DNA of 64,000 nucleotides from Escherichia phage SKA64. Shown here piece after piece: positions 4,990 to 10,883 of the stretch (positions within the stretch are counted from its first letter, which is position 1; every line of letters starts with the position of its first letter). The stretch lies in sequence record OM362897.1; one strand, given 5' to 3'. Below the pieces are notes generated by a model, which did not search any database, was not told the origin of the DNA, and saw only the letters and a list, made by a program, of their open reading frames with translations. The translations under genes and the position numbers were made by a program.

Positions 4990-5012
4990 ATAGCGCCCAT
5001 TATAGGCGCTAT
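4990..5012 (-). promoter_or_regulatory. leader stem-loop (variant)
   Basis: AGCGCC-CATTAT-AGGCGCT hairpin upstream of 4955. Confidence 0.4.
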
Positions 5013-5028
5013 AACGAAAAGTCAACTA

Positions 5029-5196
5029 TTATTTTTTAAGGCTTAAAGTGCCTAGCTTATCAGCGTGACGCAGACCAGGGAAGATCCATTTTCCTGATTC
5101 ATCTTTCACCGGGGCTTTAAAAGTAGCGCCCAGGTTGGCGGCGTTAACTTTACGTGCAACGTTGCGAGCGGCTTCACGGGTAGCGAAAGTGATCAT
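5029..5196 (-). CDS. hypothetical protein (55 aa, N-terminus MITFATREAA)
   Basis: hand-translated; GAGGAAAA RBS; below ORF-track cutoff. Confidence 0.45.
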   Translation of the reverse strand: MITFATREAARNVARKVNAANLGATFKAPVKDESGKWIFPGLRHADKLGTLSLKK

Positions 5197-5220
5197 GATA
5201 TTTTCCTCTTCTCTTTGTTA

Positions 5221-5242
5221 GGCGGTGGACCATTCCGCCGCC
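5221..5242 (-). promoter_or_regulatory. PeSL-like 5' leader stem-loop
   Basis: GGCGGTGG-ACCATT-CCGCCGCC hairpin. Confidence 0.5.
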
Positions 5243-5288
5243 TTGATGTAATACAGTTTACTTTATTTTTGCAGTATTGCAAGCGGTT

Positions 5289-5504
5289 TTATGAAATAAA
5301 TGTCAAAGTAAAATCATAATCTTTTGACAGTTTATATTGCACCTTGTTACCGTATATGTCACCTTTACGTAAAGATCCACGGATACCGATAACATCCTTC
5401 ACGTCTTTTAAATTTTTCACGCCTGTAATGTCTTTGTTGAAATACTCGTCATCTGAAAATAAAACTTGCTTTGCATTTTTTAACAAGGTGCGGATATTAG
5501 CCAT
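5289..5504 (-). CDS. hypothetical protein (71 aa)
   Basis: track ORF trimmed to ATG at 5502-5504. Confidence 0.5.
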   Translation of the reverse strand: MANIRTLLKNAKQVLFSDDEYFNKDITGVKNLKDVKDVIGIRGSLRKGDIYGNKVQYKLSKDYDFTLTFIS

Positions 5505-5525
5505 TTTGATAATCTCTCTTACTAG

Positions 5526-5545
5526 GGGCGGCAATAGTGCCGCCC
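5526..5545 (-). promoter_or_regulatory. PeSL-like 5' leader stem-loop
   Basis: GGGCGGC-AATAGT-GCCGCCC hairpin. Confidence 0.5.
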
Positions 5546-5591
5546 TATGAATTACATTTTACTAATTTTAGTTGTCTTGTCAATATTATTT

Positions 5592-5819
5592 TTAGTTTAA
5601 TTGATCCAGGCATAACAGACGATCAACGTTGAGATCGGTCAGGCTAATCGTTGGCACCTGGTAGGATTCGATGTACTCAACGCTCGACCATTGCCCAAAG
5701 TTAGCGACCGCCCAGCTATTCAATGAGGAGTGAAGATCATCCCCTTTCTTCTCGGTGATAACTGCTACTACCTGGGAGATTCCAACCGTGCCGGATACGC
5801 GAACAATAACGATAGCCAT
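5592..5819 (-). CDS. hypothetical protein (75 aa)
   Basis: ORF track; AAAGG RBS. Confidence 0.55.
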   Translation of the reverse strand: MAIVIVRVSGTVGISQVVAVITEKKGDDLHSSLNSWAVANFGQWSSVEYIESYQVPTISLTDLNVDRLLCLDQLN

Positions 5820-5841
5820 AATGATAACCTTTCTTTGATTT

Positions 5842-5862
5842 GGCGGGAAACCATTTCCCGCC
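5842..5862 (-). promoter_or_regulatory. PeSL-like 5' leader stem-loop
   Basis: GGCGGGAAA-CCA-TTTCCCGCC hairpin. Confidence 0.5.
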
Positions 5863-5910
5863 CTATGCGATAAACTACACCAGATTAAAAAACGTTGTCA
5901 ACTGCTTTTA

Positions 5911-6150
5911 TTACATTCCTACCATAGCGGCACGGATTGCAGTTTTACTATACTTGAAACCATCAGGTGTATGAGTGATTCCATCCTGTTTTAATCTGTA
6001 GCACATCAGATCCGCCGCTTTATCTTTATTGCCGCACTCATTTATTAAACCTACAGCGTATAAGTATAACGATTCATCATTATTAATCCAAAGGCTTACA
6101 TTCCAATGAGTTTTATTTTTGTGACCGTTGTACATTTTAGATTTAGCCAT
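5911..6150 (-). CDS. hypothetical protein (79 aa)
   Basis: ORF track. Confidence 0.55.
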   Translation of the reverse strand: MAKSKMYNGHKNKTHWNVSLWINNDESLYLYAVGLINECGNKDKAADLMCYRLKQDGITHTPDGFKYSKTAIRAAMVGM

Positions 6151-6171
6151 GATGTTAATCTCTTTTTCAGT

Positions 6172-6193
6172 GAGGCGGGAACTATTCCCGCTC
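6172..6193 (-). promoter_or_regulatory. PeSL-like 5' leader stem-loop
   Basis: GCGGGAA-CTA-TTCCCGC hairpin. Confidence 0.5.
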
Positions 6194-6238
6194 TCGATAT
6201 AAGTATTATATGCTTTTTATTCGTGCTGTCAATGCTTT

Positions 6239-6604
6239 TTATAAATCTTTTTTACGTTTTACATCGCTTGCATGACTGTATACAGCGATCCCATTATCAC
6301 GGCAAAAGCGGGAAAGGTAGGCATAATTTGAAAACTCTTTACCTTCCAGGTTGATAACCTTGCTAAACTCTTCTAGGGCGACGGTATCAAAATGATCACC
6401 ATAGCCATATTGAAACGGAACGTTAACCACCTCGATCAGTTTACCGCCGATCTCAACGTCAACCATTAAAGAAAAATATGTATTACCGTAGGACCGTTGA
6501 AACCAGCGACGGGCGCTAATATGCACCGCCTCAATGCTGGATAATTCAATTTTAGCCGTGTTAGCCAGGGTAGCATAAGCGGAAACATTAATATTAATAG
6601 CCAT
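6239..6604 (-). CDS. hypothetical protein (121 aa)
   Basis: track ORF; start moved to ATG at 6602-6604 which has AAAGG RBS. Confidence 0.5.
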   Translation of the reverse strand: MAININVSAYATLANTAKIELSSIEAVHISARRWFQRSYGNTYFSLMVDVEIGGKLIEVVNVPFQYGYGDHFDTVALEEFSKVINLEGKEFSNYAYLSRFCRDNGIAVYSHASDVKRKKDL

Positions 6605-6626
6605 GATGATAACCTTTTTCATTGTT

Positions 6627-6647
6627 GGCGGGAAACCACTTCCCGCC
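6627..6647 (-). promoter_or_regulatory. PeSL-like 5' leader stem-loop
   Basis: GGCGGGAA-ACCAC-TTCCCGCC hairpin. Confidence 0.5.
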
Positions 6648-6692
6648 CTATGTGGTAAACTATACTAGAATTTTAAACAATGTCAACCGTTT

Positions 6693-7055
6693 TTATTCGT
6701 AAATTTTACCGCTTTCAGCCCATACCATAACGCGGCGCATACTATCCCAAGTGTTTTGATCCAGGTTTAAGCCGTGCAACTCTTCGGTACTTTCCAGACC
6801 AGGTACCGCCTTGTTGTAAGTCGCATATAAGCGCCCTTGATACTCATACGCCAGAGTAAGATCCGTTTGAATCATCTTTTTAAGCATAGCATTAAGCATC
6901 ATATTAGCGGCATGTTGATCACGTTTTAGCGGTAACATATCAATAAAGGCGCGATAAGCTGAAACATGAATATCAACCGTTTCACGTGGTAAATTTTTCA
7001 TGTCATCGCGGAAAGATACCAGATTAAACATGATAGTATTGATTTGCTTGCTCAT
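6693..7055 (-). CDS. hypothetical protein (120 aa)
   Basis: track ORF trimmed to ATG at 7053-7055 with AAAGGG RBS. Confidence 0.5.
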   Translation of the reverse strand: MSKQINTIMFNLVSFRDDMKNLPRETVDIHVSAYRAFIDMLPLKRDQHAANMMLNAMLKKMIQTDLTLAYEYQGRLYATYNKAVPGLESTEELHGLNLDQNTWDSMRRVMVWAESGKIYE

Positions 7056-7076
7056 TGTGTTACCCTTTTTTGTTTT

Positions 7077-7098
7077 GGCGGGGAAGTATTCCACCGCC
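7077..7098 (-). promoter_or_regulatory. PeSL-like 5' leader stem-loop
   Basis: GGCGGGGAA-GTA-TTCCACCGCC hairpin. Confidence 0.5.
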
Positions 7099-7155
7099 CT
7101 ATGTGTTACATCTTATCAGATTAAAAAACGTTGTCAAGAATATTTTTAGATAATT

Positions 7156-7437
7156 TTAACTGTATGATCCACATCGTTCGCAGTAGTGATCATCGTCGTC
7201 ATCAGCTACCTGGCTGATAAAGTGATCTACTTTTGCTTTTAGGTTATTATAATTATTTTCTACTTCCTTTAATCGCTCCTGATAGTATCCCAGGGCTTCA
7301 ATATACGCCGCCTCTTCTGTTTTTTCACGCATGGCTAAATTCATGCCGCGCGTATCATCATACAGCCAAAAACCATCGGTGCACTCACTCATTGAAAGGG
7401 TAGGGCTTAACTCTTTATGATTAATTACCTTGCTCAT
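7156..7437 (-). CDS. hypothetical protein (93 aa, C-terminal CERCGSYS)
   Basis: track ORF trimmed to ATG at 7435-7437 with AAGG RBS. Confidence 0.5.
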   Translation of the reverse strand: MSKVINHKELSPTLSMSECTDGFWLYDDTRGMNLAMREKTEEAAYIEALGYYQERLKEVENNYNNLKAKVDHFISQVADDDDDHYCERCGSYS

Positions 7438-7447
7438 AGTGTGCGCC

Positions 7448-7552
7448 TTATAGAATGATTGAAACAACAATTGCTACAGTGATCCACACTGGAACGGCTA
7501 ACAAAATAGCGTTAATCGTTCCAACCGTCAAACTATTTTCTTTATTAATCAT
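7448..7552 (-). CDS. small membrane peptide (34 aa, ...VWITVAIVVSIIL)
   Basis: hand-translated; AGAGG RBS; paralog of 2970..3089 with the same downstream junction. Confidence 0.45.
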   Translation of the reverse strand: MINKENSLTVGTINAILLAVPVWITVAIVVSIIL

Positions 7553-7579
7553 TGTAAGCCTCTTGCATAATTTCACTAT

Positions 7580-7599
7580 GAGCGGCACCATTGCCGCCC
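7580..7599 (-). promoter_or_regulatory. PeSL-like 5' leader stem-loop
   Basis: GCGGC-ACCATT-GCCGC hairpin. Confidence 0.55.
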
Positions 7600-7634
7600 T
7601 ACGTGGTAAATATTATGCCAGTGGCGGCGATATG

Positions 7635-8192
7635 TCAAAGACTATTTTCAAAGTTTTCTAGTGCGATCCTTTTTTCTTCCTCTGTTGGCTGATAATCAGG
7701 AAAAGCATCAACACACAACAACGGCGGGATCTCTTCGTACTCTTCCTCTTCCGTTGTCTCCTCGTCTTCCTCCTGGGCTATGGCTGCAATTTTGGCTAAT
7801 TTTCTTTCAGCTTGAATCAATTTACCATCAAGTACGTTTTTTGCCATATTGTAAGCGGTCCAGGTTATGCGCTTACTTTCTAATGCTTCCTCAAGCGCCG
7901 CTATCTTGCTGGGGTATTCATCCAGGACACGAAAAGCCGGATCAACTTTGTACAAAGGATTATCTTTCGCGCCGTCGCTCGCATCTTCCGCACTGGATAA
8001 ATCAGCGTTACCATTTGCCAGCCAGCCAGGGCGCACATAACGCGCTTTTACGTTGCCGTTACTACGTGCTAATCTGTTACCTATTTGCTCACCGCTATAT
8101 CCCGTGGATTCATCGATAAGATGATCGGTAATGATGCGCGGATCATCTGCTTCATGTTTTACCCAAGACTGGATCACATATTCGCGGCCCAT
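7635..8192 (-). CDS. hypothetical acidic protein (185 aa)
   Basis: ORF track; start set to ATG at 8190-8192 (AAGGTGG RBS 5 nt upstream); Glu/Asp-rich C-terminal region. Confidence 0.55.
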   Translation of the reverse strand: MGREYVIQSWVKHEADDPRIITDHLIDESTGYSGEQIGNRLARSNGNVKARYVRPGWLANGNADLSSAEDASDGAKDNPLYKVDPAFRVLDEYPSKIAALEEALESKRITWTAYNMAKNVLDGKLIQAERKLAKIAAIAQEEDEETTEEEEYEEIPPLLCVDAFPDYQPTEEEKRIALENFENSL

Positions 8193-8193
8193 A

Positions 8194-8451
8194 TTAACCA
8201 CCTTTTTTCAACAATTGGCATACTTTAAAAAGACTTGCTGAATCCTTGCAAGGGTAGAAAGATGTACGATAGTCACGTACGCCAACCTTGCGGATCTCGA
8301 TGTTCTCGCATGTTGTTTGATCAAAGATATTTATTTCATCATGCCCCCTTATATAAACATAGTGGGGATGTATTAACGCATATTTTGCTAATCTGTAAAA
8401 AGCGTTATCTTTGAACGCGATCACGTGACCTTTTAATTTGATGTAAAACAT
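8194..8451 (-). CDS. hypothetical protein (85 aa)
   Basis: ORF track; AAGGTGG RBS. Confidence 0.6.
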   Translation of the reverse strand: MFYIKLKGHVIAFKDNAFYRLAKYALIHPHYVYIRGHDEINIFDQTTCENIEIRKVGVRDYRTSFYPCKDSASLFKVCQLLKKGG

Positions 8452-8468
8452 TCTACCACCTTACAAAT

Positions 8469-8487
8469 AGCGGGAACTATTCCCGCT
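8469..8487 (-). promoter_or_regulatory. PeSL-like 5' leader stem-loop
   Basis: AGCGGGAA-CTA-TTCCCGCT hairpin. Confidence 0.5.
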
Positions 8488-8527
8488 TTATGTAACATAT
8501 TAACAAATTATTCGTTAATGTCAAGCC

Positions 8528-8800
8528 TTAAAGCAAAAACGCTACATCTTGCGCTTTTAGTGTAGTATCAACCATTTTCGGGCTTTTATAATCAACAAAG
8601 CGCGCGGTTTTTTCAATAGCGAAACCGAGATAATCTTGTTTATTGAATTTACATTCTTTCTTAAATGTTTCCCGCGCCACGGTGATCGCTGCGTCCAGGG
8701 ATAAACGCCCGTCAATGTTGATATTTGCGAAAGATCCGCCACCGCTCATAGGTTTACCAGTGGTGCCAGTTACGATCATTGTTGCGCTATATGATGCCAT
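8528..8800 (-). CDS. hypothetical protein (90 aa)
   Basis: ORF track; AAGAGAGAAA RBS-like. Confidence 0.55.
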   Translation of the reverse strand: MASYSATMIVTGTTGKPMSGGGSFANINIDGRLSLDAAITVARETFKKECKFNKQDYLGFAIEKTARFVDYKSPKMVDTTLKAQDVAFLL

Positions 8801-8821
8801 GATGATTTCTCTCTTCTGTTA

Positions 8822-8842
8822 GGCGGGGCGCTTGTCGCCCCT
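8822..8842 (-). promoter_or_regulatory. PeSL-like 5' leader stem-loop
   Basis: GGGGCG-CTTGT-CGCCCC hairpin, near-identical to copy at 2739-2760. Confidence 0.55.
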
Positions 8843-8884
8843 ATGTGATACATCTTATCAGGTTGTGGCTTGTTGTCAAGACTT

Positions 8885-9082
8885 TTATTCTATTCCTGCA
8901 ATCTGCTTAACGCGCTTGCATTTTGCAGTATGCTGATCTTCTGTAATTACTCCCATTTCTAACAGTGAATCAATGAAAGATAAAACCGTTTCATGATCAT
9001 CTTGGGGATGACTGAACTCAGTAAAACCGTTTACTATTACGTTGATTTGTCCAGCTTTCGCCACAATGTGCAATGTTGCCAT
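8885..9082 (-). CDS. hypothetical protein (65 aa)
   Basis: track ORF trimmed to ATG at 9080-9082 with GGAG RBS. Confidence 0.5.
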   Translation of the reverse strand: MATLHIVAKAGQINVIVNGFTEFSHPQDDHETVLSFIDSLLEMGVITEDQHTAKCKRVKQIAGIE

Positions 9083-9101
9083 GATCTTAACTCCAAATAG
9101 T

Positions 9102-9121
9102 GAGCGGCACCATTGCCGCCC
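9102..9121 (-). promoter_or_regulatory. PeSL-like 5' leader stem-loop
   Basis: GCGGC-ACCATT-GCCGC hairpin; minus-strand TTGACG-N17-TAATAT upstream. Confidence 0.55.
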
Positions 9122-9268
9122 TACGTGGTAAATATTATGCCGCCACCTGGCGAACGTCAACCACTTTTTCAATCTTTTTATTTTCTTTTTGCTTGCTATA
9201 TATAAAGGAAAGGGCTATCATCTTTCTACCGCGCCAACCAGGGCGCACAACAAAGAAAGGGCGACACC

Positions 9269-9535
9269 ATGACAAATACTACATTACACCTTATGCACTC
9301 ATTGGGCTGGCAAGGCGGCACGGTGCACCAGGTAGCAAGCGCAACGGGCTTAAAGGTTGAAACCGTTCTCAACCTATCAGATTATAAGGTCGAGGATAGT
9401 TATCAATTACAAAGTTACACGGGCGGTTTTACCTGGGCGCGTGAAGGTGGGAAAGAAAGCAATATACCACATTGGGGAAAAGGTGATATTCATTTTTGGC
9501 TAGGTGTCCTGACCTGGCAAGAAAACAAAAAATAA
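9269..9535 (+). CDS. hypothetical protein (88 aa)
   Basis: ORF track; AAAGGG 8 nt before ATG; isolated plus-strand gene. Confidence 0.45.
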   Translation: MTNTTLHLMHSLGWQGGTVHQVASATGLKVETVLNLSDYKVEDSYQLQSYTGGFTWAREGGKESNIPHWGKGDIHFWLGVLTWQENKK

Positions 9536-9537
9536 TC

Positions 9538-9566
9538 TTGACAAGCCCAGGGATCGGGCTTATACT
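9538..9566 (+). promoter_or_regulatory. consensus sigma70 promoter
   Basis: TTGACA-N17-TATACT; spacer is a GATC-centred palindrome AGCCCAGGGATCGGGCT. Confidence 0.65.
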
Positions 9567-9573
9567 GTTTTAC

Positions 9574-9790
9574 ATACAGAAGAGGAAGCGCCACCCCACG
9601 GCGTAAAGGCGGGGCTAACATACCAGGGGCACTGGTTGGAAGGTTGATCGCCGGTAGGCTGGGCGCTATATATTTGTAAAGAAATGTAAAGATAAAATAA
9701 TCGCTTGCTTTCCTGGGTGGATCTGTTATTCTTATTACATGGCGAGGGGACACGGGAGCGCGAGACAAACACCGCCCCTGCGCGTCATTC
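9574..9790 (+). ncRNA. candidate structured non-coding transcript (GC-rich leader)
   Basis: starts at consensus promoter; GC-rich islands with local hairpins (ACCAG-GGGCA-CTGGT at 9621-9635) in an AT-rich genome; no RBS-led ORF. Confidence 0.3.
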
Positions 9791-9797
9791 TCTAAAT

Positions 9798-9816
9798 GAG
9801 AATGATTATCATTTAC
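9798..9816. promoter_or_regulatory. Fur-box-like palindrome
   Basis: GAGAATGATTATCATTTAC matches 15 of 19 positions of GATAATGATAATCATTATC. Confidence 0.35.
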
Positions 9817-9855
9817 CTTATCAAATAAGAATCAATCTCATTTATAAACCTAAAT

Positions 9856-9874
9856 GCGAATCATTATCATTTGC
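9856..9874. promoter_or_regulatory. Fur-box-like palindrome (second copy)
   Basis: GCGAATCATTATCATTTGC; AAATGC...GCATTT inverted repeat. Confidence 0.3.
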
Positions 9875-9919
9875 ATTTCCATATGAGAACTCTTCTCATT
9901 CCCATCTGCATAAATTTTT

Positions 9920-9980
9920 GTAAACTTTAAATTTTGCTTTTGTACTTTCATTTTTGTAAAAGCAAAAAAACTTTAAATAC
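9920..9980. repeat. AT-rich direct repeat, copy 1
   Basis: about 58 bp, roughly 80% identical to 10058-10118. Confidence 0.55.
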
Positions 9981-10012
9981 TGTGGGCGCGCAAAATTTTT
10001 AAAATTTTCCTT

Positions 10013-10160
10013 GATTTTTGAGTTTTGTTTTGTATCTGACATTTTAAGATAATTTTCCTAAACTTTAAATTTTGGTTTTCAACTTTCACTTTTGTAAATT
10101 CTTAAAAAGTTTAAATAATTTGAGGGATTTTTGAGATAATAGGTAATGGGAATTTGAGAT
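10013..10160. repeat. iteron-like short repeats (GATTTTTGAG x3)
   Basis: GATTTTTGAG at 10013-10022 and 10126-10135, ATTTGAGAT at 10152-10160. Confidence 0.4.
10058..10118. repeat. AT-rich direct repeat, copy 2
   Basis: second copy of AAACTTTAAATTTTG...TTTTGTAAA...TTTAAATA block. Confidence 0.55.
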
Positions 10161-10246
10161 AACCTTTAATCTTATTGGCAGACCTTCAGGAACCCACTCA
10201 GATCGAATCCTAGTGATGCAAACTGAAAAAGACAAGGGTTTGTATA

Positions 10247-10296
10247 GGACAAAATAATAGGCTCTCTACGGTGCTGTAGGAGCCTTATTTCTGTGC
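10247..10296. terminator. bidirectional rho-independent terminator candidate
   Basis: AGGCTCTCTAC...GTAGGAGCCT hairpin (10259-10285) flanked by A-tract and T-tract; sits after minus-strand gene ending at 10341. Confidence 0.5.
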
Positions 10297-10340
10297 TACA
10301 AAGTGACGCCTTTGTTCTAAAAATGAAAAAAGTTAAAATA

Positions 10341-10883
10341 TCACAAATATCGTCTTTGCGGTATTTTGTCTGGGAAAAGTATTTCGATCAGTTTGTTATG
10401 ATATTTACCTAAAAGATTTTGCCCTTTCCAGTTGACCGGATTTAGCACCCCTGGTTCATACATTCCCATTCCAATACCGTAAACCTTATCGTAAGGACTT
10501 GCTTCAACAAACGTTTTGTATTGGTAAAGGTGTAAGTCTGCATACAAATCTGGATTCTGTACATATTTCAAGCATAAACCTCGCATAACAATACGCTCAC
10601 GGTTCTCTTCCCATACATTGTTATCAAAATCCGACACTGCCCTACCCATACGTTTGTAATAAGCCTGGATCTTCTCATCTTTCCGTATCAAACTATGAGT
10701 CAGAATAGCCTGTGCAGTGTTGTGATCATTAAAAAGCAAAGCTTTACGCCACATCATGTATTGTTCGACACAATTAAATGTCTGATTGTAACCTGGTTCG
10801 GTTTCTGTAAAGGGTGCAATATACCAATTACTAAAAACATCTTTATGTGAAAAGAAGAATACATAATCATCAGTTATTCGCAT
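10341..10883 (-). CDS. NADAR-domain protein (YbiA-like, putative ADP-ribose N-glycosidase)
   Basis: motifs FFFSHKDVFSNWY, EQYMMWRKALLF, YDKVYGIGMG resemble NADAR/YbiA family. Confidence 0.65.
   Translation of the reverse strand: MRITDDYVFFFSHKDVFSNWYIAPFTETEPGYNQTFNCVEQYMMWRKALLFNDHNTAQAILTHSLIRKDEKIQAYYKRMGRAVSDFDNNVWEENRERIVMRGLCLKYVQNPDLYADLHLYQYKTFVEASPYDKVYGIGMGMYEPGVLNPVNWKGQNLLGKYHNKLIEILFPDKIPQRRYL

Follow-up and report, generated by a model that had tools for sequence, protein, structure and literature searches.

The window analysed here is a stretch of 64,000 nt from Escherichia phage SKA64 (OM362897.1), a Phapecoctavirus, i.e., a phAPEC8-like myovirus: megablast with positions 9400-10400 retrieves 143 phage records, and the top matches belong to this genus (iGC_PHA_EC001, 99.4%; anhysbys, 98.9%; and also phAPEC8 itself). 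We describe an 800-bp stretch free of open reading frames (ORFs) at 9536-10340, further called the hub, and an array of four palindromes within it, similar to the binding sites of the host repressor Fur (Fur boxes). The genes flanking the hub are nearly all located on the minus strand, except for a small plus-strand gene at 9269-9535 just upstream of it, which is conserved and has no assigned function. The order of modules in the hub, as seen in alignments of nine and then of 16 relatives, is promoter P1, domain 1, two TGTAAAG repeats, promoter P2, domain 2 hairpin, terminator-like hairpin, the array, an AT-rich tract, and a terminator hairpin (Table 1).

The palindrome array and its similarity to Fur boxes

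The array spans positions 9792-9903 and consists of four 21-bp palindromes with the consensus AAATGAGAAT-N-ATTCTCATTT, whose centers follow one another with a pitch of exactly 29 bp. A preliminary description of this region had listed GAGAATGATTATCATTTAC at 9798-9816 and GCGAATCATTATCATTTGC at 9856-9874 as matching the Fur consensus in 15 and 13 of 19 positions, respectively, followed by a third palindrome, ATGAGAACTCTTCTCAT. All three are real, the last one being located at 9883-9899, and both counts are reproduced; the former match is the only one of 15/19 in 64 kb, but 13/19 is reached at 30 positions. The fourth member of the array, AAATAAGAATCAATCTCATTT (9823-9843), and the 29-bp regularity had been overlooked. 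In each 25-bp unit the hexamers are arranged as F-F-x-R-R (nnAAAT GAGAAT N ATTCTC ATTTnn) and provide two overlapping 19-bp Fur registers 6 bp apart; palindrome 1, for example, reads cTAAAT-GAGAAT-G-ATTATC-ATTTAc.

When up to three mismatches to the pattern AATGAGAATNATTCTCATT are allowed, four matches are found in the window, all of them in the array, compared to 0.09 expected from shuffled sequences. Matches of at least 13 bits with the Fur matrix (described below) number 12 in the window, five of them within 9792-9874. In 200 Markov simulations no 120-bp stretch contained more than two such matches, compared to five in the array. A lone match of 22.8 bits arose once in these simulations, and therefore the significance rests on the cluster and not on the top score. 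Shuffles and simulations exclude a chance origin of the array.

Table 1. Features identified in the hub, with positions in the window and, for the palindromes, scores with the Fur matrix.
Feature	Position	Strand	Description	Fur matrix (bits)
Promoter P1	9538-9566	+	TTGACA 9538-9543, 17-nt spacer, TATACT 9561-9566; 11/12 to the σ70 consensus	
GC-rich non-coding domain 1	9585-9662	+	Candidate structured RNA from P1	
Promoter P2	9705-9732	+	TTGCTT 9705-9710, 16-nt spacer, TATTCT 9727-9732	
Domain 2 hairpin of the P2 transcript	9742-9783	+	Fold energy about -16 kcal/mol; two pairs with compensatory changes	
Terminator-like hairpin	9784-9806	+	GTCATTCTC-TAAAT-GAGAATGAT, then TATCATTT; found by terminator scan; 9-bp hairpin in ViennaRNA	
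Palindrome 1	9792-9816		Core 9794-9814 AAATGAGAATGATTATCATTT, center 9804; 1 difference from the array consensus	13.0 (9792-9810) and 22.8 (9798-9816), registers 6 bp apart
Palindrome 2	9821-9845		Core 9823-9843, center 9833, 29 bp from palindrome 1; 2 differences	14.3
Palindrome 3	9850-9874		Core 9852-9872 AAATGCGAATCATTATCATTT, center 9862; 2 differences	15.3 and 16.5 (9850/9856), registers 6 bp apart
Palindrome 4 (weakest)	9879-9903		Core 9881-9901 ATATGAGAACTCTTCTCATTC, center 9891; 3 differences; 21.7 bits with the phage-site matrix	6.9 and 9.1
AT-rich ORF-free tract	9900-10150		20-32% G+C, about 250 bp, to the right of the array	
Terminator hairpin	10259-10294		Closes the hub at the right; fold energy -14.7 kcal/mol	

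The half-sites of the palindromes vary independently, with 41% complementary pairs at ±4 compared to 51% expected, and therefore the selection has been for a site of a dimeric protein rather than for hairpin complementarity. This observation bears on the possibility that the palindromes act as nucleic-acid structures (RNA terminators or hairpins, DNA cruciforms) or are chance AT-rich repeats, which we consider very improbable. It is true that palindrome 1 overlaps the terminator-like hairpin, that one of the Rfam chance hits models 9792-9845 as a hairpin (E = 0.57), and that early work on T5 proposed a secondary structure at the injection-stop signal (cited in Davison, bioRxiv 10.1101/866236). 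Still, besides the lack of excess complementarity, the A/T-rich arms with a single central base would form weak hairpins, the number of matches far exceeds that in shuffles, and it is the sequence consensus, not just the symmetry, that is kept across families.

For comparison with host sites, we used a symmetric 19-bp matrix derived from 14 Fur-regulated promoter regions of E. coli K-12 (fepA-fes, fepD-entS, fepB-entC, fhuA, fecI, fecA, cirA, fiu, tonB, exbB, fur, fhuE, fhuF, and ryhB). Site 1, scoring 22.8 bits, is on a par with the best training site, that of fhuF (22.9 bits), the leave-one-out scores of the host sites being 7.7-21.8 bits, and sites 1-3 all fall within the range of genuine E. 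coli sites. Similarly, the best match to the consensus GATAATGATAATCATTATC per E. coli promoter is 11-16 of 19 positions (n = 14), compared to the 15 and 13 of the array. The register pairs 9792/9798 and 9850/9856 are offset by 6 bp, as are the overlapping sites in footprinted Fur clusters (Chen et al., 2007, PMC2189734).

A second, phage-site matrix was built from 56 distinct palindromes of phapecoctaviruses, Justusliebigvirus, Klebsiella Stephanstirmvirinae, Vequintavirinae, and T5-like phages. Their logo is (A)AATGA[G 64%/T 30%]AAT-[G/C]-ATT[C/A]TCATT(T), with T at -7 in 96%, G at -6 in 86%, and A at -3 in 97% of sites. Fur recognizes DNA via a contact of Arg57 with G, via thymines, and via the narrow minor groove of AT-rich DNA (Deng et al., 2015, PMC4506495), and the best-conserved positions of the logo are the Arg57-contacted G of TGA, the flanking T, and the AAT-N-ATT core. 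In the reciprocal scan of 68 kb of E. coli DNA, all 20 top matches of the phage-site matrix fall in Fur-regulated intergenic regions, which constitute 4.4% of this DNA, and represent 12 different promoters (fecI, 24.9 bits; ryhB, 24.7 bits; fhuF, 22.3 bits, among others), whereas column-permuted palindromic matrices place 4.0 ± 2.2 of their top 20 matches there. Zur was considered as another candidate binder and rejected: the znuA/znuC operator scores only 1.5 bits with the phage-site matrix, and the sites match the Zur box in 11-13 of 23 positions, compared to 14-18 of 25 for the F-F-x-R-R form of the Fur box.

The exact consensus AATGAGAATNATTCTCATT is also found in at least 120 bacterial contigs representing many phyla, ranging from Oxalobacteraceae, SAR86, Pelagibacteraceae, and Nitrosomonas to Actinobacteria and Firmicutes. 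Thirty genes starting within about 120 bp downstream of it were scanned with Pfam, and 22 had a match. Fourteen of these 22 belong to families typical of Fur regulons, namely, a FUR-family regulator, two of ZnuA type, three ECF sigma factors, a TonB-dependent receptor, four SBP_bac_6 (Fe3+-type), an FTR1 iron permease, a Peripla_BP_2, and an AhpC, and two more are ABC ATPases; the yardstick for this enrichment is how rare such genes are in general, not a random control set. A literature text search with TGAGAATCATT returned several papers on Fur and iron uptake among the top matches, beside unrelated ones. The scores in the host range, the reciprocal scan, and the placement before iron genes in bacteria give strong in silico support to the designation "Fur-box-like" proposed in the preliminary description, and, at the level of sequence, the sites of the array are shown to be equivalent to Fur boxes.

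Distribution among phages and position relative to genome ends

Boxes are present at the hub position in 25 of the 27 distinct hub sequences, one to five in each, and start from the same base-conserved junction. Their spacing is predominantly 29 bp, and distances of 23/24, 17, and 37-40 bp also occur. The position of the array is shared across Stephanstirmvirinae and Vequintavirinae.

The closest complete genome, EC001 (OR437326), was scanned at 1-70,000 and 120,000-148,445, with the window standing in for the middle part. At the threshold of 12 bits for the phage-site matrix, all matches except a weak one in coding DNA lie either in the hub or within 1.5 kb of non-coding sequence at 129.4-130.9 kb. 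The palindromes of this terminal region are located at 129,615, 130,371, and 130,550 of the record, just outside the window. This region corresponds by homology to the left end of Justusliebigvirus BME3, for which a direct terminal repeat of 342 bp has been determined with PhageTerm (PMC12210895); indeed, in the BME3 record the last 342 bp equal the first 342 bp. The terminal repeat contains two boxes (52-72 and 247-267), the first one only 52 bp from the physical end, while two further boxes are located at about 1.2 kb (1158-1236), and five, in the hub at 11.88-11.99 kb. The right end of the BME3 record (146,169-147,371) carries a duplicated 788-bp block and several Ns before the terminal repeat; this duplication is probably an assembly artefact, so the end coordinates need care.

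The distance between the left end and the hub is 11.9 kb in BME3 and about 9.8 kb in EC001, where the end is placed by homology to BME3. The boxes thus bracket a terminal arm of about 10-12 kb, corresponding to about 7-8% of the genome, a value that extends to the window by homology. Small minus-strand genes fill this arm, and three of them carry a repeated promoter-like cassette. In the window this cassette, GGCACCATTGCCGCCCTACGTGGTAAATATTATGCC, is found at 735-770, 7584-7619, and 9106-9141, upstream of small minus-strand early genes; the copy at 9106-9141 contains, on the minus strand, a promoter (TTGACG, 17 nt, TAATAT) and a GC-rich leader, and the cassette yields spurious plus-strand ORFs starting MSGTIAALRGKYYA. 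In total, there are about 9-11 palindromes per genome if both terminal repeats are counted.

A motif scan of IMG/VR yielded at least 120 loci; the numbers given here refer to the matches listed. Most loci show no similarity to the reference phages compared, and their G+C content ranges from 21 to 57%. Twenty-five contigs have at least three matrix matches per 300 bp, up to nine, some of which are overlapping registers, and the arrays often consist of the textbook GATAATGATAATCATTCTC. ORF-free DNA, constituting 17% of the loci, contains 80% of the arrays, and the gaps holding them have the median length of 653 bp, compared to 90 bp for all gaps. Moreover, the motifs are skewed towards contig ends, with 15 within 400 bp compared to 5.3 expected (Kolmogorov-Smirnov p = 4e-4), and in one group of contigs the array is located upstream of the terminase-portal block. 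In a contig of 41 kb, seven tandem GAGAAT hexamers ending GATTATCATTT were observed at 40-100, at the contig end beside more boxes; this (GAGAAT)×7 run represents the hexamer-repeat form of the Fur box.

No phage protein common to the box-bearing families was found. As one motif occurs in such diverse phages, the binder should be conserved across many hosts, and Fur fits, because the Fur models of E. coli, Pseudomonas aeruginosa, and Bacillus subtilis are highly similar (Chen et al., 2007, PMC2189734). A host factor would be the simplest common binder.

Promoters, predicted RNAs and neighboring genes

P1 and P2 are conserved rightward σ70 units with only non-coding RNA as the predicted product. 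P1, conserved in relatives, points at the array and is followed by no ORF; in P2 both hexamers are conserved in 16 relatives, and the spacer varies. Domain 1 is kept across Stephanstirmvirinae and Vequintavirinae (BLAST) and folds in RNAalifold into nested helices with one covarying pair and a hairpin of variable length; over the alignment of the hub, RNAalifold gives 31 pairs, three of them with compensatory changes. The 3' arm of the terminator-like hairpin is the left half of palindrome 1, and the junction GTCATTCT-NN-AAATGAGAAT is almost invariant across subfamilies. A search of 9000-10500 against Rfam (E <= 1) identified no family and only two chance hits, and no tRNA is present in the window. 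The P1 and P2 elements (9538-9814), with approximately 70-77% DNA identity across Stephanstirmvirinae and Vequintavirinae and both ending at the 9784-9806 hairpin, are candidate novel phage small RNAs.

The first box is located 60-250 bp downstream of P1 and P2, and the sole promoter-like match overlapping the boxes is weak (9/12, 9841-9870). Between the array and the terminator at 10259-10294, there is no plus-strand ORF of 40 or more amino acids, and therefore the array controls no protein-coding gene. Hence the model of a classical Fur-repressed promoter was rejected: the boxes cover the -35/-10 elements of no promoter that drives a protein-coding gene, an ORF that could be repressed is lacking, and therefore classical repression of a gene by Fur does not apply. 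At the place homologous to this terminator, phAPEC8 is annotated with a minus-strand terminator. We read the hairpin at 10259-10294 as bidirectional, because on each strand it is succeeded by a T-run; the plus-strand role is thus suggested by the sequence.

To the right of the array, the AT-rich tract of the hub contains a pair of 72-nt direct repeats (9913-9984 and 10051-10122), themselves AT-rich, 138 bp apart, and with 82% identity; they are kept within the genus only and may represent promoters, iterons, or a DNA-unwinding element. On its right side, the hub is followed first by a minus-strand gene (10341-10883) for a NADAR-domain protein (Pfam E = 2e-35), annotated in some records as GTP cyclohydrolase II or YbiA-like N-glycosidase.

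The layout of the hub resembles that of a replication origin, as it combines tandem promoters without genes, four regular palindromes, and 250 bp of 20-32% G+C with direct repeats. The palindromes might then be iterons or operators of a phage-encoded dimeric protein, for example at a λ-ori-like origin, and their resemblance to Fur boxes, a coincidence or mimicry. A phage dimeric regulator had also been offered as an alternative in the preliminary description. The rigid 29-bp pitch with the fixed position, the bias of the phage sites towards GAGAAT, unlike host sites, and the conserved small gene directly upstream agree with this possibility. On the other hand, phage families not related to one another, and contigs ranging from 21 to 57% G+C, carry this motif, and no protein that they share was found; all 20 top matches of the phage-site matrix fall in Fur-regulated promoters; and in bacteria the palindrome precedes iron-uptake genes. 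In the small upstream gene no DNA-binding signature was found, and it is absent from T5-like phages and rV5, though both have the boxes; the T5 proteins A1 and A2 have no homologue here either, so that the alternative of a phage regulator finds no support. As for the origin, no DnaA boxes (TTWTNCACA) are present in the hub, the T5 replication origins have been mapped near the genome center (Davison, bioRxiv 10.1101/866236), and GC skew switches at about 16 kb rather than in the hub. GC skew itself was discarded as an origin marker, the switch tracking gene strand. All in all, we regard a phage-encoded binder as unlikely.

Possible roles of the array and comparison with known systems

The explanation that we favor, with moderate confidence as a whole, is that the array is a set of putative operators for host Fur with a proposed role in cis, as a barrier or organizer. 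Its two parts differ in strength: binding of Fur to the array, predicted from the motif, is quite probable, while the cis role as the selected function is put forward tentatively. Under this explanation, holo-Fur would load on each palindrome in an iron-replete host. By analogy with the solved two-dimer Fur-DNA complexes (Deng et al., 2015, PMC4506495), two Fur dimers could bind a unit from opposite faces, and the array could accommodate up to about eight dimers over 110 bp, forming a nucleoprotein block. The bound array would be an iron-dependent barrier or organizer in cis at the inner edge of the terminal early-gene arm and would gate transcription from P1 and P2, yielding either proper RNA 3'-ends or read-through into the AT-rich tract; such read-through could serve origin activation or DNA entry. 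The position of the array, fixed to the base at the ends of the P1 and P2 RNAs, and the rigid pitch are the reason why a cis role is favored. It seems that Fur is recruited by phages for a purpose distinct from the usual control of genes.

Replicating genomes, with about ten palindromes per genome copy, would also soak up Fur, which we see as an automatic by-product, by the logic of the Fur titration assay (FURTA), where plasmid-borne Fur boxes de-repress the regulon. The same effect could be the selected function: multi-copy boxes would titrate holo-Fur and de-repress host iron uptake and sparing, feeding the iron-dependent ribonucleotide reductases of the phage. Such a sink agrees with the absence of a gene regulated in cis, with the number of palindromes per genome, to be set against roughly 5,000-10,000 Fur molecules in E. 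coli, with the presence in EC001 of genes for both subunits of a class I ribonucleotide reductase, and with the wide occurrence of arrays in unrelated phages. However, it needs neither the base-exact position nor the rigid 29-bp pitch nor the confinement to the terminal repeat and the hub, and a lytic cycle leaves little time for it. Moreover, T5 degrades host DNA early, so that de-repression would be of no help and a role in trans would be pointless in this phage. Selection for a sink is, in our opinion, improbable.

Returning to Fur as a cis-acting barrier or organizer, several observations weigh against it, beside the pointlessness of a trans role in T5. Binding of Fur is strongly predicted, with support coming from sequence throughout, and the cis function is suggested by geometry. 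The Fur matrix was seeded with the textbook consensus, and its promoters were of our own choosing. Palindrome 4 is weak with this matrix (7-9 bits). The phage sites prefer GAGAAT (64%), and only 30% have GATAAT, though the latter is typical of the host; this preference may be a signal of a different or additional binder. No box covers the -35/-10 elements of a gene promoter, unlike in classical Fur operators. Finally, in a genome-wide screen for host factors of phages including T5, Fur was named only as the repressor of fhuA; overexpression of FeoB or YdiE protected BL21 from T5 and CEV2, and the authors expect it to raise Fur-Fe occupancy and credit the protection to fhuA repression (Mutalik et al., 2020, PMC7553319). 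We take the silence of this screen on fur as a host factor to indicate, indirectly, that infection does not require Fur, whose role, if any, would then be modulatory.

The relation to T5 deserves separate consideration. Sensitive BLAST of the hub also matches the terminal repeats of T5-like phages, and the motif of the array is present in phiR2-01, EC122, and T5. In T5 (AY587007), the matching sequences are copies 1-4 of direct repeat C (DRC) and palindromes E-I (9468-9637); with the E. coli Fur matrix their scores reach 20.4 bits. Next to them are the nick at 7.9% (9661) and the position where first-step-transfer DNA is estimated to shear (9618). One more Fur-like site of T5, GGAACTGATAATCATTATCATCCTC (228-252, 18.5 bits), is located inside the 3' part of dmp, about 230 bp from the left end, and echoes the end-proximal boxes of BME3. 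The DRC and palindrome repeats are conserved in 25 T5-like phages; the palindromes have been given no function beyond that of speculated A1 cleavage sites, with Fur never mentioned (Davison, bioRxiv 10.1101/866236).

One can imagine that the array, like the T5 injection-stop signal, is a checkpoint of DNA entry, the terminal arm (about 7-8%) entering first and the transfer pausing at the boxes, with or without Fur. This agrees with the BLAST link to T5-like terminal repeats and the place of the T5 boxes beside the nick and the shear point, with the distances of the hub from the left end in BME3 and, for the inferred end, in EC001, with the arm of small leftward-strand genes only, three having the promoter-like cassette, and with the lack of strong promoters other than P1 and P2 that face the remainder of the genome. 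At the same time, rV5-like and phAPEC8-like phages are not known to enter in two steps, and other phages with arrays are too diverse to all do so; there is no evident way for a cytoplasmic protein to halt entry; in T5 itself these palindromes have no established role; and DnaA boxes, DRD repeats, and A1/A2 homologues are lacking here. We give this possibility, which is compatible with binding of Fur, a low probability. Its combination with Fur, where the Fur-box clusters would be the host-factor element of an entry checkpoint common to T5-like siphoviruses and rV5/phAPEC8-like myoviruses, holo-Fur at about 8% gating the passage from the early arm to the rest, is quite unlikely.

Fur operators are known, as are the T5 repeats, as unexplained repeats. 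What appears to be new is the identity of these repeats with Fur operators and the use of arrays at phage genome ends and hubs: in the literature searched, the DRC and palindrome repeats are nowhere called Fur boxes, and there is no account of Fur-box arrays in lytic phages. The array structure, the terminus copies, and the link to T5 extend the preliminary description. Fur boxes are textbook operators of bacterial iron genes, and here they form conserved regular arrays in gene-free DNA of virulent phages, where they occupy the terminal repeat, the inner border of the early-gene arm, and the neighborhood of the T5 injection-stop signal. If Fur binds them, the iron status of the host would feed into phage development, replication, or DNA entry, infection would be predicted to perturb the host Fur regulon, and the half-century-old question of the T5 transfer stop at 7.9% would be open to study with Δfur hosts and iron chelation. 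Were the Fur-dependent entry checkpoint true, Fur boxes and Fur would be the cis element and the host partner that have long been sought for the T5 injection stop, and many tailed phages would sense host iron via Fur near their DNA ends before committing to infection.

Among known systems, Repeat Region 3 of T5, comprising DRC 1-4 and palindromes E-J of the left terminal repeat by the injection-stop signal, is likewise clustered and non-coding; it is located about 8% from the left end, compared to about 7-8% estimated for the array by homology to BME3 and EC001. Only T5 combines its boxes with neighboring DnaA boxes, paired in the IRD'/IRC' repeats, with DRD iterons, with a terminal repeat of 10 kb, and with A1/A2 genes in the arm, and its box spacing is irregular, compared to the rigid 29 bp here. 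In our data, tblastn found no A1/A2 homologues in the window, EC001, or BME3, so that A1/A2 was ruled out as the shared binder, and no DRD-like repeats were detected, the BLAST similarity to T5-like phages spanning the palindromes only. As A1/A2 homologues and hub DnaA boxes are absent, the resemblance to T5 is limited to the boxes and their relative position.

The λ origin has four O-protein iterons and an AT-rich tract, and the T7 primary origin, tandem promoters and an AT-rich tract. The hub is similar to them in having four regular inverted repeats by an AT-rich tract, downstream of tandem gene-less promoters, but its repeats match the site of a host repressor and not of a known initiator, and no initiator gene is adjacent. 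In E. coli ftnA, Fe-Fur displaces H-NS at upstream Fur sites. In the phage, too, several predicted Fur sites are located off a core promoter in AT-rich DNA, and in ftnA their role is architectural rather than a block of RNA polymerase; the difference is that the ftnA sites have a target gene, and the phage array has no known one.

Finally, the enterobacterial Fur boxes (fecI, ryhB, fhuF, fhuA, and entC; GATAATGATAATCATTATC in 7-1-7 or hexamer models) share with the array the motif, as in the fecI site ATATGAGAATGGTTATCATTA and the ryhB site CAATAATAATCATTCTCATTC, as well as the 6-bp registers and the score range. Unlike these host boxes, the phage sites form four full 25-bp palindromes with a pitch of 29 bp, do not overlie the -35/-10 elements of iron genes, prefer GAGAAT over GATAAT, and are located in the hub and terminal repeat of a virulent phage.

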